64,000 bases of DNA, from positions 46,668 through 110,667 of the forward strand of contig JAIOYP010000005.1 in the NCBI GenBank assembly GCA_021741155.1, in the 5' to 3' direction. Source of the DNA: Flavobacteriales bacterium (GTDB lineage: Bacteria; Bacteroidota; Bacteroidia; UBA10329). Shown piece by piece: positions 32,338-37,920 of the stretch (positions are counted from its first letter, which is position 1; the number at the start of each line of letters is the position of its first letter). The translations under genes and the position numbers were made by a program. Below the pieces are notes generated by a model. That model was not told where the DNA came from. It did not search any database and worked only from the letters and a program-made list of their open reading frames with translations.

Positions 32338-32513
32338 TTTGAGACCTACTATGTTTTCAAAGCAGGGGTGTCCGAAATGTGGTTAGGAGGAGCTGTATTT
32401 AACCCTTTCAGGGATATTTAGGGCTGCGCCCTTATTCGATTGGTCATACCCATCGTTAGTATATAGCGCTTTTCCGGTTACGCTGCGTGAAAATTAAAGG
32501 AGCGCAGCGACAA

Positions 32514-32554
32514 AATCCGTGTTCATCCGCGCTATCCGCGTCCTCCGCGTTCTA
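32514..32554 (+). repeat. Solo copy of the 41-bp (ATCCG)n periodic repeat
   Basis: 36/41 identical to the reverse complement of 34586-34626. Confidence 0.85.
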
Positions 32555-32692
32555 TTATAGAGCATCCCTCAATCAAGAGCGTAGCGACAAATCAGTCCAA
32601 CCAGTTCAATCAGAGCCTGCCCTGAGTTTGTCGAAGGGTTCTATCACCCAGCCCCCATTTTCTATATTTGAGATTCCCGCAAAACGGAATCC

Positions 32693-34588
32693 ATGAAAAA
32701 GATAAACTCTCTCCAAGAATACCACCAGCAATACGCCCTAAGCGTAGCCAACCCAGAAGGTTTCTGGAACGATAAAGCCGAAACCTTCCAATGGAAAAAG
32801 AAGTGGAATAAAACCTTGGAGTGGGAGTTCAAAACACCAGATGTAAAGTGGTTTTTGGGCGGAAAGCTCAACATTACCGAGAATTGTCTTGATAGGCATC
32901 TCGAAACACGAGGCGACCAAGTAGCCATCCTCTTTGAACCCAACGACCCAAGCGAGAAAGCTGAAAAAATCACATACAAGCAATTGCACAGCCGAGTTTG
33001 TGCTTTCGCAAACGTTCTTAAAAGAAACGGGGCCAAGAAAGGCGATAGAATTTGCCTCTACATGCCCATGACGCCCGAATTGGCCATTGCCACCTTGGCT
33101 TGTGCGCGAATTGGAGCCATTCATTCGGTAGTGTTTGCGGGTTTTTCTGCACGCTCACTCGAAGACAGAATTAACGATGCTACCTGCAACATTATCGTTA
33201 CAGGCGATGGCGCCTATCGCGGGGCAAAAACCATCGACCTCAAAGGAATTGTGGATAAAGCCCTCGAAACCTGCCCATCGATTAAGACGTGCATCGTTCA
33301 GAAAAGAACGGGTGCATCTATTACAATGAAAGAGGGTCGCGATGTGTGGTTGGAAGACGAATTGAAGCTCGTCAACGATGACTGCCCAGCCGAAGAAATG
33401 GACAGCGAAGACATGCTTTTTGTGCTCTACACTTCGGGCTCAACAGGCAAGCCTAAGGGCGTGGTTCACACCTGTGGCGGCTACATGGTTTATGCAGAAT
33501 ACAGCTTTAGAAACGTGTTTCAATATGAAGAAGGCGATGTGTATTGGTGCACTGCCGATATTGGTTGGGTCACGGGTCACACCTACATCGTTTACGGGCC
33601 CTTGTTAGCAGGAGCAACCACCGTGATGTTCGAAGGCATTCCCAGTTATCCAGATGCGGGGCGTTTTTGGGAAGTGTGCGACAAGCACCAAGTCAATATT
33701 TTCTACACCGCGCCAACCGCCATTCGTGCGTTAGAGGCCTACGGATTGGATTACGTAAAACCCTACAAACTCGATAGTTTGCGCGTGTTGGGTTCGGTCG
33801 GAGAGCCGATAAACGAAGAGGCTTGGCACTGGTACGATAAGCACATCGGCAAAGGCAAATGCCCCATTGTGGATACGTGGTGGCAGACCGAAACGGGAGG
33901 CATTCTCATCTCGCCTTTGGCGGGAATAACGCCTCTTAAACCGAGTTATGCCACGCTTCCACTCCCAGGCGTCCAACCTTGTTTGGTTGATGCTGATGGC
34001 AATGAAATTGAAGGAAACGATGTGCAGGGAAATCTCTGTATGAAGTTCCCGTGGCCGGGTATGCTTCGCACCACTTATGGCGACCACGAACGCTGCAAGC
34101 AGGTCTATTTCTCTACTTACAAAGGCAAATATTTTACAGGCGATGGTTGCCGAAGAGACAAAGACGGCTACTACCGAATTACGGGAAGAGTTGATGATGT
34201 GATTAACGTTTCGGGCCACCGCTTTGGAACGGCTGAAATTGAAGCCGCCATTGACGAGCACGAAAACGTGGTAGAAACGGCCGTTGTTGGTTATCCACAC
34301 GACATCAAAGGACAAGGCATTTATGCCTACGTCATTTGCAACCATCCACCTGCAGACTTAGAAGCGTTCCGAAAGGAAATCCACAAAGTGGTCATTGAAA
34401 TTATTGGCCCAATTGCGAAACCCGATAAAGTTCAGGTGGTAAGTGGATTGCCAAAAACGCGTTCAGGAAAAATTATGCGAAGAATTCTCAGAAAAGTTGC
34501 TGAAGGAGACGTGTCTAATCTAGGCGATACCTCTACCTTGCTCGACCCATCTGTAGTAGACGAAATTAAATTAGGCGCTGGGTTGTAG
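32693..34588 (+). CDS. acs: Acetate--CoA ligase
   Basis: [20 protein letters not shown] and [11 protein letters not shown] motifs. Confidence 0.97.
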
Positions 34589-34626
34589 AACGCGGATGAC
34601 ACGGATTGAGCGGATAAACACGGATT
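34586..34626 (+). repeat. Left 41-bp inverted repeat of the GxxExxY cassette
   Basis: tagaacgcggatgacacggattgagcggataaacacggatt; 35/41 match to the reverse complement of 35013-35053. Confidence 0.9.
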
Positions 34627-34629
34627 AAA

Positions 34630-35013
34630 ATGTCAAATCTTCTTCATTCGGAAATTACAGGAACTATCCTTGAATGTTTTTTCAAGGTGTACAACTCCTT
34701 GGGATATGGTTTTCTGGAGAAGGTATATGAGCGCGCCTTGGTCATTGAGTTACGACATTCTGGACTTGAGTGTTCCGTCCAATACCCCATCAAAGTTTAT
34801 TATGAAGGCGAGATAGTTGGTGATTACTTTGCCGACATAATGGTCGAGGGAAAAGTAATTGTTGAGCTGAAAGCTGCTGATGTCTTATGTGAAGAGCATG
34901 AATTCCAACTCATCAATTATTTGAAAGCCACAGATGTTGAAGTCGGCCTATTGCTGAACTTCGGCACGAAACCACAATACAAACGAAAGGTCTTTAGCAA
35001 TGGCCGAAAATAA
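34630..35013 (+). CDS. GxxExxY protein (PD-(D/E)xK nuclease-like)
   Basis: GYGFLEKVY, ADIMVEGKVIVELK, QLINYLKAT and GLLLNFG motifs. Confidence 0.95.
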   Translation: MSNLLHSEITGTILECFFKVYNSLGYGFLEKVYERALVIELRHSGLECSVQYPIKVYYEGEIVGDYFADIMVEGKVIVELKAADVLCEEHEFQLINYLKATDVEVGLLLNFGTKPQYKRKVFSNGRK

Positions 35014-35053
35014 ATCCGCGAGTATCCGCTCAATCAGCGTCATCCGCGTTCCA
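35013..35053 (-). repeat. Right 41-bp inverted repeat of the GxxExxY cassette
   Basis: aatccgcgagtatccgctcaatcagcgtcatccgcgttcca. Confidence 0.9.
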
Positions 35054-35058
35054 TTAAA

Positions 35059-37920
35059 ATGACAAAACAGAACGAAACAGAAGACAAACGTCTCTTTCTC
35101 CTCGATGCCTTTGCATTGATTTACCGTGCCTATTTCGCCTTTGCAGGCAATCGTGTAGATAAGCACGGCAATCGCGCCAGCGGCTATACCATGGTCAACT
35201 CAAAAGGGCTGAACACATCGGCCATTTTTGGCTTTACCAACACGCTTTTGGAGTTGCTGGAGAAGGAAAAACCATCCCACATTGCCGTGGTATTTGACAT
35301 GCCGGGCGAAACAAACCGTCAAATTGAATACACCGAATACAAGGCTAATCGTCAGGCCATGCCTGATGATTTGCGCGACAGCATTTCCTACATTCAAGAC
35401 CTTATCCGAGGCTTTCGAATTCCAGTGTTGGGAGTAGAAGGCTACGAGGCCGATGATGTAATTGGCACCCTCGCCAAAAAGGCCGAAAAAGAAGGCTATA
35501 CAACTTACATGGTTACGCCCGATAAGGATTATGGGCAGTTGGTTTCTGATAAAATCTACATGTACAAGCCCGCTAGCATGGGCAACGACATTGCCGTGTT
35601 GGGTCCGAAAGAAATTTGTGAGAGGTATGGATTGGCACGCCCCGAACAATTGATTGATGTGCTCGGAATGTGGGGCGATGCGGTGGATAATATTCCCGGA
35701 ATTCCTGGAGTGGGAGAGAAGACCGCCATCAAGTTCATTCAGGACTATGGCTCGATGGAAGGCTTGTACGAAAACCTCGACCAACTGAAAGGAAAAATGA
35801 AGGAAAACGTGGAAAACAATCACGAAAAAGCCCTCATGTCCAAAATGTTGGCAACCATTATTTTGGATGTTCCGATTGATTTTGATGAGGAAGACCTCAT
35901 TATGGAAGAGCCAAATAAGGAAGCGTTAGCTGAATTGTTTGCAGAGTTGGAATTCAGAACCATCGCCAGAAAAGTACTTGGACAAGAAGTAGCTATTCAG
36001 CCAGCCCCAAAACCAGCTACCGCTAAATCTGCGGCAATGGGGCAGATAGATATGTTTGCGGCCAGCGATACCGTGGTAGAAACGGTTGAGGGTTCGGGTT
36101 ATCAGACGTTGTCAAACACCGACCACGATTACCAGCTTGTTGATACTGCTGAAAAGCGAAAAGAGCTTATCGCAACCCTTTCCAAAGCCGAAACTATTTG
36201 TTTTGACACCGAAACAACAGGATTGGACACGCTTACCGCTGAACTGTTGGGCATCGCTTTTTCCATCGAAAAGGGAAAAGGTTTTTACGTGTCCATTCCT
36301 GATAATGAGGTTGAAGCCAAGAAAGTCTGTGCGGAGTTTCAGTCCATCTTTTCTGATGGAAAGAAATTGCTGATTGCGCAGAATTTGAAATATGATTTGT
36401 GCATTCTTCTGCGTTACGGAATTACTATTTCGGCCAAGACGTTCGATACCATGATTGCGCATTATCTCATCAATCCGGATATGCGACACGGAATGGATCT
36501 ATTGGCGGAAACGTACCTCGCCTACAAGCCTCAATCAATCACCGAACTAATTGGAAAAAAAGGCAAAGCGCAGGGCAGCATGAAGGATGTGGCTTTGGAA
36601 GATGTGAAGGAATATGCTGCAGAAGATGCCGACATCACCTTTCAATTGTTCGAGAAGTTCGGCCCGTTGTTGGATGAAGTGGAAGCGCGAAAACTCTTCA
36701 ATGAGGTTGAAATGCCGCTCATTCCTGTGCTTGGCGCCATGGAGATGGAAGGAATTAAACTTGATGTTGCGGCACTCAAAATAATGTCAGCCGAATTGAA
36801 CGAAGACCTCATCCGCTTGCAGACCGAGATTAAAGAGTTGGCAGGAGTTGACGATTTCAATATTCAATCGCCAAAGCAATTGGGAGAGGTGCTTTTTGAC
36901 CATTTGAAAATTGACACCAACGCCAAGCGAACAGGCAAAACAGGGCAGTACAAAACGGGCGAGGAGATTTTGAGCAAATTGGTTGGAAAACATGCCATTG
37001 TTCCAAAAATCTTGGATTACCGTTCGGTTCAAAAACTCAAATCGACTTATGTCGATACGCTTCCAGAACTCGTAAACGCTAAGACGGGGAAGATTCATAC
37101 AAGCTACAATCAAGCAGTTGCTGCAACGGGTCGATTGAGTTCAGATAATCCGAACCTTCAGAACATTCCGATTAGAACGGAACGCGGTCGCGAGATTAGA
37201 AAAGCATTCATACCCCGAAGCGAAGAATATGTCCTTCTTGCAGCGGATTATTCGCAAGTGGAGCTTCGCATCATTGCTGCCTTGAGTAAGGACGGACCGA
37301 TGATTGAAGCTTTCAAGCAGGGACAAGATATTCACGCAGCTACGGCCGCCAAGGTTTTCGGAGTAAAATTGGAAGAAGTTGACCGCGACATGCGAAGCAA
37401 GGCCAAGGCCGTAAACTTTGGGCTGATGTACGGCCAGTCGGCATTCGGATTGGCGGATAATTTGGGCATTTCCCGAACGGAAGCGAGAGATATAATTGAA
37501 GAATATTTCAAGCAATTCCCAACCATTCGGGCTTACATGGATAGCAACATTCAGTTTGCCAAGGAGCACGGATACGTGGAAACCATCATGGGGCGCAGAC
37601 GCTACTTGCGTGACATCAACTCAAACAATCAAACTGTGAGAGGTTATGCCGAACGAAACGCCATCAACGCGCCTATTCAAGGATCAGCAGCTGATATCAT
37701 CAAAGTGGCAATGATCAACGTTCATGCAGAAATGAACAAGCGCAAAATGAAATCAAAATTGCTGCTTCAAGTGCATGATGAACTTGTTTTTGATGCGCAT
37801 AAAGATGAATTGGAAGAGCTCAAAGCCTTGGTTCAAGAAAAAATGGTTGGAGCGGTAAGTTTAGAGGTGTCGATGGTGGTGGATATGGGAGTTGGAACGA
37901 ACTGGTTAGAGGCACATTAA
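35059..37920 (+). CDS. polA: DNA polymerase I
   Basis: 5'-3' exonuclease (YKANR, EADD), 3'-5' exonuclease (DTETTG) and polymerase (DYSQVELR, QVHDEL) motifs. Confidence 0.98.
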   Translation: MTKQNETEDKRLFLLDAFALIYRAYFAFAGNRVDKHGNRASGYTMVNSKGLNTSAIFGFTNTLLELLEKEKPSHIAVVFDMPGETNRQIEYTEYKANRQAMPDDLRDSISYIQDLIRGFRIPVLGVEGYEADDVIGTLAKKAEKEGYTTYMVTPDKDYGQLVSDKIYMYKPASMGNDIAVLGPKEICERYGLARPEQLIDVLGMWGDAVDNIPGIPGVGEKTAIKFIQDYGSMEGLYENLDQLKGKMKENVENNHEKALMSKMLATIILDVPIDFDEEDLIMEEPNKEALAELFAELEFRTIARKVLGQEVAIQPAPKPATAKSAAMGQIDMFAASDTVVETVEGSGYQTLSNTDHDYQLVDTAEKRKELIATLSKAETICFDTETTGLDTLTAELLGIAFSIEKGKGFYVSIPDNEVEAKKVCAEFQSIFSDGKKLLIAQNLKYDLCILLRYGITISAKTFDTMIAHYLINPDMRHGMDLLAETYLAYKPQSITELIGKKGKAQGSMKDVALEDVKEYAAEDADITFQLFEKFGPLLDEVEARKLFNEVEMPLIPVLGAMEMEGIKLDVAALKIMSAELNEDLIRLQTEIKELAGVDDFNIQSPKQLGEVLFDHLKIDTNAKRTGKTGQYKTGEEILSKLVGKHAIVPKILDYRSVQKLKSTYVDTLPELVNAKTGKIHTSYNQAVAATGRLSSDNPNLQNIPIRTERGREIRKAFIPRSEEYVLLAADYSQVELRIIAALSKDGPMIEAFKQGQDIHAATAAKVFGVKLEEVDRDMRSKAKAVNFGLMYGQSAFGLADNLGISRTEARDIIEEYFKQFPTIRAYMDSNIQFAKEHGYVETIMGRRRYLRDINSNNQTVRGYAERNAINAPIQGSAADIIKVAMINVHAEMNKRKMKSKLLLQVHDELVFDAHKDELEELKALVQEKMVGAVSLEVSMVVDMGVGTNWLEAH

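Follow-up and report, generated by a model that had tools for sequence, protein, structure and literature searches.

A GxxExxY nuclease gene enclosed by phased inverted arms at an acs-polA junction: a probable small mobile cassette in a Flavobacteriales bacterium

In systems built on repetitive extragenic palindromes and their associated tyrosine transposases (REP/RAYT), a gene for an IS200/IS605-like HUH Y1 transposase is flanked by inverted palindromic repeats, and many gene-less doublets of such repeats occur. MITEs, short for miniature inverted-repeat transposable elements, have terminal inverted repeats, are short non-autonomous derivatives and insert between genes. Here we consider a 468-bp unit that occupies the gap between acs and polA in a Flavobacteriales bacterium, and in which a small open reading frame (ORF) of the GxxExxY nuclease family is enclosed by two inverted arms. 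It lies in a window of 64,000 nucleotides (assembly GCA_021741155.1, contig JAIOYP010000005.1, positions 46,668 to 110,667 of the forward strand), and coordinates given without a contig name are those of this window. A closer published look-alike than REP/RAYT is the ORF-bearing intervening sequence (IVS) of 23S rRNA, as in Coxiella and Leptospira. In the passages of one report that describe it, the Coxiella IVS is a 428-nt "selfish" element in helix 45 of 23S rRNA whose terminal inverted repeats pair as a 28-bp stem around an S23p ORF; three GACAGAT heptamers stand in tandem upstream of that ORF, and RNase III cleaves within the stem (PMC4990558). The same passages present the IVS as selfish, patchy and of unknown mobility, and cite older proposals that IVSs are remnants of transposition or mobile elements whose ORF serves mobility (PMC4990558).

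Set beside those passages of PMC4990558, the acs-polA cassette resembles the IVS in its length (roughly 430-470 nt), in having one small ORF between stem-forming terminal inverted repeats, and in the heptamers of the arm upstream of the ORF, which are GACAGAT in the IVS and CACGGAT/CGCGGAT in the cassette. It differs in lying between the protein-coding genes acs and polA rather than in helix 25 or 45 of 23S rRNA, in carrying a PF13366 PD-(D/E)xK nuclease rather than the PF05635 four-helix bundle, and in having its units phased at 9-10 nt rather than in tandem. RNase III excision is shown for the IVS in that part of the literature, whereas for the cassette the stem is a fold prediction and a mismatch test, described below, gave no RNA-level signature. 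The genome of this window (G000, 69 contigs, numbered C1 and so on) itself holds four PF05635 genes (S23p, 23S_rRNA_IVP), at C56:36133-36640 (with an in-frame TGA), C16:30440-30748, C55:38626-38919 and C1:172691-172996, all of them within periodic inverted arms made of other 7-8-nt units.

The likeness to REP/RAYT lies in a gene flanked by inverted repeat copies (34588-34626 and 35013-35051) and in gene-less palindromic doublets in the same genome (51, with the arm type of a sister cassette on C36), the numbers of which vary widely between close relatives. Unlike REP/RAYT, the enzyme has a PD-(D/E)xK fold in place of HUH Y1, the arms are arrays of phased heptamers instead of a single short hairpin, and the arm type of the window cassette is represented by seven orphan single arms and no doublets. 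The analogy with REP/RAYT drawn in the original prediction thus holds for the layout and for the gene-less copies of the sister arm type, and the enzyme fold differs. With MITEs and their parent insertion sequences the cassettes share terminal inverted repeats, short derivatives and intergenic placement; unlike the MITE parents they have no DDE or serine/tyrosine transposase, and no target-site duplication has been established. The element sits among these known kinds, IVS-like and REP/RAYT-like, rather than being categorically new, and on our best reading it is built like an ORF-bearing 23S rRNA IVS and behaves like REP/RAYT. A search of open-access full text (PMC and bioRxiv; subscription journals lay outside its coverage) found no description of GxxExxY cassettes or their arms, and a table in PMC3424549 lists PF13366 as "Unknown", with multiple transfers. 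The name GxxExxY itself turned up in three papers, in a passage of one of which it is no more than a passing mention. What is new here is a strand-symmetry test, the measurement of complementarity by position class, an analysis of gain and loss at 17 junctions with approximately unbiased (AU) tests, and arm-only copy numbers across congeners.

At the locus a single inverted repeat dominates, in which 34588-34626 is 87% complementary to 35013-35051 over 39 nt, 386 nt apart; an extension by 2 nt gives arms of 41 nt with 35 of 41 positions paired. The left arm (34586..34626, forward strand) has the outer end TAGAAC and carries CGGAT-type units at 34593, 34602, 34611 and 34621, spaced 9, 9 and 10. 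In mirror order (10, 9, 9), the right arm (35013..35053, forward strand) carries ATCCG/ATCAG units at 35014, 35024, 35033 and 35042 and has the outer end GTTCCA. Between the arms, the 127-aa GxxExxY/PDDEXK_3 ORF runs from 34630 to 35013 on the forward strand. Both host genes are on the same strand and in the ORF list: upstream acs (acetate--CoA ligase, 32693..34588; TIGR02188, E 2.4e-287), whose TAG stop at 34586-34588 is overlapped by the extended left arm, and downstream polA (DNA polymerase I, 35059..37920; NF004397, 1121 bits), whose ATG lies 5 nt past the extended right arm (7 nt past the unextended one). The nuclease stop codon shares its final base with the inner end of the right arm. 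The cassette abuts stop and start codons and breaks neither host gene. The enclosing arms with their four periodic units, the contact with three gene ends in a 468-bp unit and the non-disruptive placement at a gene junction had all been put forward in the original prediction, and the repeat search and our own reading of the sequence bear them out.

A 506-nt region around the unit folds with z = -4.9 and with the arms paired, and none of 100 shuffles folded equally well. Between 32200 and 35400 no Rfam family, rRNA or other, was matched at E <= 1, and a scan for sigma-70 promoters and terminators, using a model ill-suited to this phylum, gave nothing above shuffles. One contig from DNA sequencing runs (four runs, fragmentary contigs) joins 34615 to 35033, with a shorter side of 23 letters that is too weak for calling an arm-only allele. 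A direct repeat of 14 nt found at both start codons (34624 and 35053) was set aside as chance or start context, as it fails to bracket the arms and resembles the A-rich start context of orthologues.

The ORF scores 135 bits against TIGR04256 (GxxExxY; cut-off 35, E 1.4e-39) and 141.5 bits against PF13366 (PDDEXK_3; cut-off 22, E 2e-41), the latter being its sole Pfam match at E <= 0.1. The GxxExxY motif reads G27-F-L-E30-K-V-Y33 and is followed by D69, E79-L-K81 and Q93...Y97. E30, D69, K81, Q93 and Y97 never vary across an alignment of 76 family sequences, and conservation at E79 and Y33 is 90% or higher. This residue set, E...D...ExK...QxxxY, we take to be the motif of RecB/Cas4-type PD-(D/E)xK nucleases, and its conservation indicates that the nuclease active site is under selection. 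In an AlphaFold2 model (predicted local distance difference test score 94.3, predicted template modelling score 0.87) the best Foldseek neighbour is the Cas4 protein SSO0001 (4ic1, E 6e-4). A structure search (VIA) matched 3ijm (Z 8.4), AF1548 (Z 8.1), TT1808 (Z 7.6), Cas4 (Z 7.0), Hjc (Z 5.8) and a PD-(D/E)xK homing enzyme (3r3p, Z 5.1), all within the range that the search calls common, so that the fold is shown and not the function; lambda-exonuclease chains were also among the best fold matches of the model. By sequence the PDB gave no match at E <= 1. Profile scores and model thus uphold the family assignment and the PD-(D/E)xK fold first proposed for this protein. It shares fold and residue set with Cas4/RecB-family and restriction-endonuclease-like nucleases; unlike Cas4/RecB it is a minimal 127-aa core with no Fe-S cluster and no helicase partner. 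In a protein tree of the 76 sequences 34 of the 72 forks are open, and the tree is used only for the deep split between GAG-type and GAT-type proteins and for the interleaving of phyla.

The arms are not peculiar to this locus. Five PF13366 genes occur in G000, at unrelated loci and with a paralogue identity of 34-39%, and all five are surrounded by periodic inverted arms, with units of CGCGGAT/CACGGAT at the acs-polA cassette, CACAGAT/CACTGAT on C36, and CACAGAG, CGCAGAG and CGCAAAG types on C37, C12 and C55. Eighty family loci were fetched, these being the best 80 of 571 confirmed relatives and hence mostly from the clade of this protein; they come from Bacteroidota, Chloroflexota, Acidobacteriota, Planctomycetota, Ignavibacteriota, Nitrospirota, Verrucomicrobiota, Latescibacterota and Patescibacteria. 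Arms were called where the alignment score lay more than 10 above the best of 20 shuffles, which was the case at 50 of 79 fetched loci, or 55 of 84 with the five paralogues included, the scores being 59 and upwards at family loci as against at most 16-31 for shuffled flanks. In the arms of these 55 loci the unit words are CGGAT (146), CAGAT (66) and CTGAT (49), and 134 of the 182 unit spacings measure 9 or 10 nt; at least two CNGA[TG] units are present in just 2 of 110 random 42-mers taken at these loci. The core word C.GAT is constant across phyla, and the unit core tracks the deep protein clades, with the GAG type in the clade of loci L001-L003 and the GAT type in the remainder. The family as a whole is patchy: of 201 genomes sampled from the phylum 116 carry it, at 1-13 copies each, and it is found in 71 of 110 genera.

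In L054, L076, L080, L085, L089, L099 and other Flavobacterium loci a small hairpin, TTCGC-N-GCGAA, lies inside each arm between units 2 and 3 and accounts for a second mode of spacing at 22 nt (17 of 182 spacings). In G000, two GxxExxY cassettes (C12:6986-7336 and C55:43154-43501) occupy the same joint between two aldehyde-dehydrogenase-like genes; their flanks are roughly 80% identical by eye and could be paralogous operons or come from a second strain in the bin (contamination 3.85%).

Placement of the unit follows a pattern. On a rough count of frames of 110 aa or more, taken from stop to stop, the genes on both sides run in the same direction as the cassette gene in 60 of 79 loci, and in only 2 of 79 do both run against it. 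The left arm overlaps the upstream stop codon or begins no more than 10 nt past it in 32 of 50 loci, and arm ends often begin with TAG or TAA. At the acs-polA junction the arm-end TAG serves as the acs stop here and in most of the ten same-site cassettes, whereas empty alleles have TAA. At one site of a gene-less palindrome in G000 and in its relative G015, the outer flank of the element gives the upstream gene its last three codons and stop, and G007 has at this site an arm-like remnant rather than a clean empty site. These positions indicate that the unit sits co-oriented in tight operon joints and often supplies the upstream stop codon, and, as there is no room for a promoter, expression of the cassette would be by read-through. 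Excision in silico of the repeat-delimited unit restores an acs stop in 7 of 9 carriers, which is uninformative because about two thirds of the frames in AT-rich flanks give a stop by chance.

The history of the unit can be followed in 16 genomes of the genus, which provide 17 acs-polA junctions, two of them in G006. Three of the junctions are cleanly empty (G001, G010 and G020), with 5-6 nt from the TAA stop to the ATG; seven hold the cassette alone, four hold only an unrelated gene for a ~480-aa protein that bears a signal peptide, and cassette and gene occur together as cassette then gene at one junction (G015) and as gene then cassette at two (G003 and G013). On a tree of 1.3 kb of flanks with 17 rows, the presence of the cassette needs at least five changes and that of the ~480-aa gene at least seven. 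AU tests, in which the groups were set by trait and named after the tree had been inspected, reject monophyly at p 1e-11 in the case of all carriers, at p 0.0018 in that of cassette lineage 1 and at p 0.0066 in that of the empty junctions. It had been allowed at the outset that homologues might generally lack such arms, or that relatives might all carry the gene by vertical descent with no empty sites; what was found is arms at all five paralogues and at 55 of 84 family loci, three empty junctions, five or more changes and no single carrier clade.

Three cassette lineages are present at the site, each with its own arm pattern, and they do not follow the flanks: relative to G000 the cassette protein is 68% identical in the flank-sister G003 and 90% identical in G019. 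In G015 some 30 nt of the polA 5' end remain as a relic after the right arm, ahead of the ~480-aa gene, from which it follows that the acs-cassette-polA layout came first there. The element measures 468, 470, 470, 471, 472, 475, 471, 464, 534 and 481 bp at the ten carriers, lengths that are not multiples of three, and the reading frame of the nuclease is intact in all ten. Taken together these comparisons indicate that gene plus arms form a unit that is inherited, gained, lost and exchanged. The variable ~480-aa gene was noted at L116-L122, the acs-polA junctions of G012, G006, G008, G013, G015 and G003; at junctions that have this gene and no cassette, a palindrome, AGAATATTCT, similar to the outermost arm bases, precedes polA.

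At the 55 loci, complementarity between the two arms differs by position class: it is 97.2% within the core (C.GAT), 84.0% over the spacers and lowest, at 66.7%, for the N position. Changes at the N position are mostly from CG to CA/TG, and might reflect deamination or methylation of the CpG type at the units. Among the ten cassettes at the acs-polA junction, 18 of 39 arm pairs are altered on both sides, spacers included; none of 500 shuffles reaches 18, and sliding the partner by 1-3 columns gives 6-10. In this count the pairing is taken from the window's own row, and some same-site cassettes may be replacements rather than in-place descendants. The data indicate that arm complementarity is actively kept by compensatory change and that conservation of the unit core extends across phyla.

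To an RNA stem, G-U mismatches on the sense strand are tolerable and A-C mismatches are not. Across the arms G-U mismatches number 64 and A-C mismatches 81 (binomial p 0.18), with more G-U in 15 loci and more A-C in 25, and in 28 gene-less palindromes between co-directional genes the counts are 33 and 35. With no G-U wobble signature, the force on the arms acts symmetrically on both strands. The constraint thus looks to be at the DNA level rather than the RNA level, and the suggestion in the original prediction that the arms pair in mRNA is, as their main constraint, argued against by these counts. Candidate sources of a symmetric constraint would then be protein sites on duplex DNA, DNA hairpins or cruciforms, or conversion from arm to arm.

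Copies without a gene were sought in G000 among inverted repeats (165 pairs) and by a word-pair search. For the arm type of the C36 cassette these gave 51 gene-less palindromes of 57-100 bp, each made of four plus four CAC-N-GAT units and ending in the same GCCACAGA word as the arms of that cassette; of the CGGAT type of the window cassette, seven orphan single arms with no partner are present. Hits of the C36 arm motif number 138 in G000, 77 in G015, 55 in G026, 39 in G003 and 20 in G008, with 0-10 in other genomes (40 relatives) and 0-1 for a reversed-pattern control. By these numbers the arm-only palindromes of the sister cassette have multiplied in G000. Orthologues of the C36-type protein (at least 68% identity) are present in G003, G015, G010, G021, G005 and G013. 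The outer flanks of the 51 palindromes are conserved, and they differ between the two sides (ACATGTTTTTA and TATTTCATGTCA), from which it follows that the palindrome element extends beyond the heptamer arms and has polarity.

From this evidence the 468-bp unit is very probably one copy of a mobile or selfish cassette. It is an even call whether the cassette's own nuclease acts on the cassette's own arms, and we infer that it is the nuclease that moves the cassette. The full explanation towards which we lean slightly is that of a selfish mobile cassette made of a promoter-less GxxExxY nuclease gene and inverted arms. Each arm consists of three or four helically phased C-N-G-A-T heptamer-like units, one per helical turn, and read-through from acs would provide for transcription of the gene. 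Acting probably as an oligomer, the nuclease would bind the phased units of both arms on duplex or on hairpin or cruciform DNA and would cut at or near the outer arm ends. In this way the unit, and arm-only copies in trans, would be excised, or copied to further AT-rich joints where genes end; alternatively, the unit might be copied into empty alleles after a break. The arms would pair in the transcript, and processing by RNase III, by analogy with the IVS, may make the insertion harmless.

Several results weigh against this explanation. In filled and empty acs-polA junctions, in junctions with the ~480-aa gene and at one palindrome site, no target-site duplication was definable; none could be called because the flanking TA and TTAA words, being palindromic, might themselves form part of the inverted repeat. 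G000 contains no near-identical second copy of the gene-bearing cassette, and with paralogues only 34-39% identical no recent transposition of the gene itself is seen. It also contains no arm-only palindromes of the window cassette's own arm type. A close C36-type orthologue was not found in G008 or G026, which have 20 and 55 motif hits, so that the association between arm-only copies and a cognate gene is only partial. The PF05635 cassettes encode no nuclease, and arm packaging does not, therefore, need a PD-(D/E)xK enzyme. Finally, the half-trees of acs and polA disagree, from which it follows that allelic recombination contributes to the pattern of gain and loss, and part of that pattern may be such recombination and not insertion.

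The main rival to the self-moving cassette makes the GxxExxY gene, like the S23p gene, a passenger, with the arms as sites of a host or unlinked recombinase or nuclease and with some function of the cargo, in defence or addiction for example, favouring its retention. We consider this unlikely, yet it would account readily for the nuclease-free PF05635 genes of G000 in analogous periodic arms and for palindrome-rich genomes such as G008 and G026 that have no close cognate gene. Against it, the unit core follows the deep clades of the protein (GAG versus GAT type) and is conserved across phyla along with it, the catalytic residues are invariant, and no candidate for a trans-acting enzyme turned up, though none was searched for. 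Less likely are the readings in which the unit acts at the RNA level, is purely a homing gene or is an ordinary gene. If the arms were a stem in the acs-polA transcript, cut by RNase III so that the inner mRNA is released or silenced and acs is uncoupled from polA, any behaviour as DNA would be secondary. Pointing in that direction are the predicted RNA fold, where the arms pair (z -4.9), the strong co-orientation with host genes (60 of 79 loci) and the Coxiella IVS, whose ORF lies inside a 28-bp stem cut by RNase III with GACAGAT heptamers in the 5' arm in the passages of PMC4990558 cited above. We nevertheless regard it as rather improbable, given that G-U is in no excess over A-C (64 versus 81; 33 versus 35), that the core is conserved beyond what pairing needs (97.2% versus 84.0%), that arm-only palindromes are dispersed through the genome and that the region has no Rfam match.

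A free-standing homing endonuclease gene that cuts empty acs-polA alleles and is copied in by break repair, with arms that are incidental or regulatory, would explain the clean empty alleles and the three cassette lineages at one junction, which run against the flank tree and whose flanks look recombined, and a PD-(D/E)xK homing enzyme is indeed among the fold matches (3r3p, Z 5.1). Such a gene would leave unexplained the conserved arms at many unrelated sites and in many phyla, as well as the 51 gene-less palindromes at different sites, and we hold it to be quite improbable. Least of all do we believe that this is an ordinary accessory gene, passed on vertically and equipped with a regulatory palindrome, for instance a repair nuclease that works with polA: its position next to polA and the intact frame in all ten carriers are what one would expect of such a gene, and the five paralogues at unrelated loci, the empty junctions with at least five changes in the genus, the cassette standing on the other side of the inserted 480-aa gene in G015 as compared with G003 and G013, and the patchy distribution are not.

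Beyond the self-moving cassette itself, a wider reading, which we find doubtful and offer tentatively, would unite GxxExxY cassettes and ORF-bearing 23S rRNA IVSs in one superfamily of DNA-level mobile elements, in which the phased arms are binding or cutting sites of the encoded protein; the minimal PD-(D/E)xK nuclease would be a new kind of transposase or homing enzyme that places the element at stop/start joints, with the element end as stop codon. If true, this would provide a testable answer to the thirty-year-old question of where IVSs came from. Should the narrower explanation hold, a common "hypothetical" gene family (116 of 201 genomes, and about ten phyla among the fetched loci) would mark an undescribed class of small mobile elements, which would travel within operons, provide stop codons and give rise to dispersed palindromes, and which would have an architecture in common with the intervening sequences of rRNA. 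This would then account for many spurious ORFs derived from repeats, and for odd palindromes between genes, that turn up in annotation, and the protein might be a compact sequence- or structure-specific nuclease with a defined DNA site.

Other repeats of the window and its genome may be recorded here. One of the seven orphan single arms of the CGGAT type, in right-arm orientation, was identified by sequence matches and reading at 32514..32554 (forward strand) in the spacer upstream of acs, and has no partner arm within 2.5 kb. The same spacer (32499-32613) has two GAGCG[CT]AGCGACAA modules, each followed by a right-arm-type array, of ATCCG units at 32514-32554 and of ATCAG units at about 32590-32613. 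A 13-mer, GGAGCGCAGCGAC, occurs 66 times genome-wide with two or fewer mismatches, often immediately before arm-like arrays, and also in tandem runs, for example in G000 on C57 at about 44.0-46.2 kb and on C23 at about 8.0-8.2 kb. A perfect palindrome of 28 nt, GTAGAGACGCGATTAATCGCGTCTCTAC, is present in more than 10 copies at irregular spacing within 2.4 kb on C38 of G000 (81842-84211), and in single copies on C36, C37 and C11. A second dispersed hairpin family, AGACCCTTCGTTCCTCAGGGAAGCAA, with a loop of about 23 nt and a sequence unrelated to the heptamer arms, is found in G000 at, for example, C1:47616-47691, C38:67018-67102 and C3:34691-34769.

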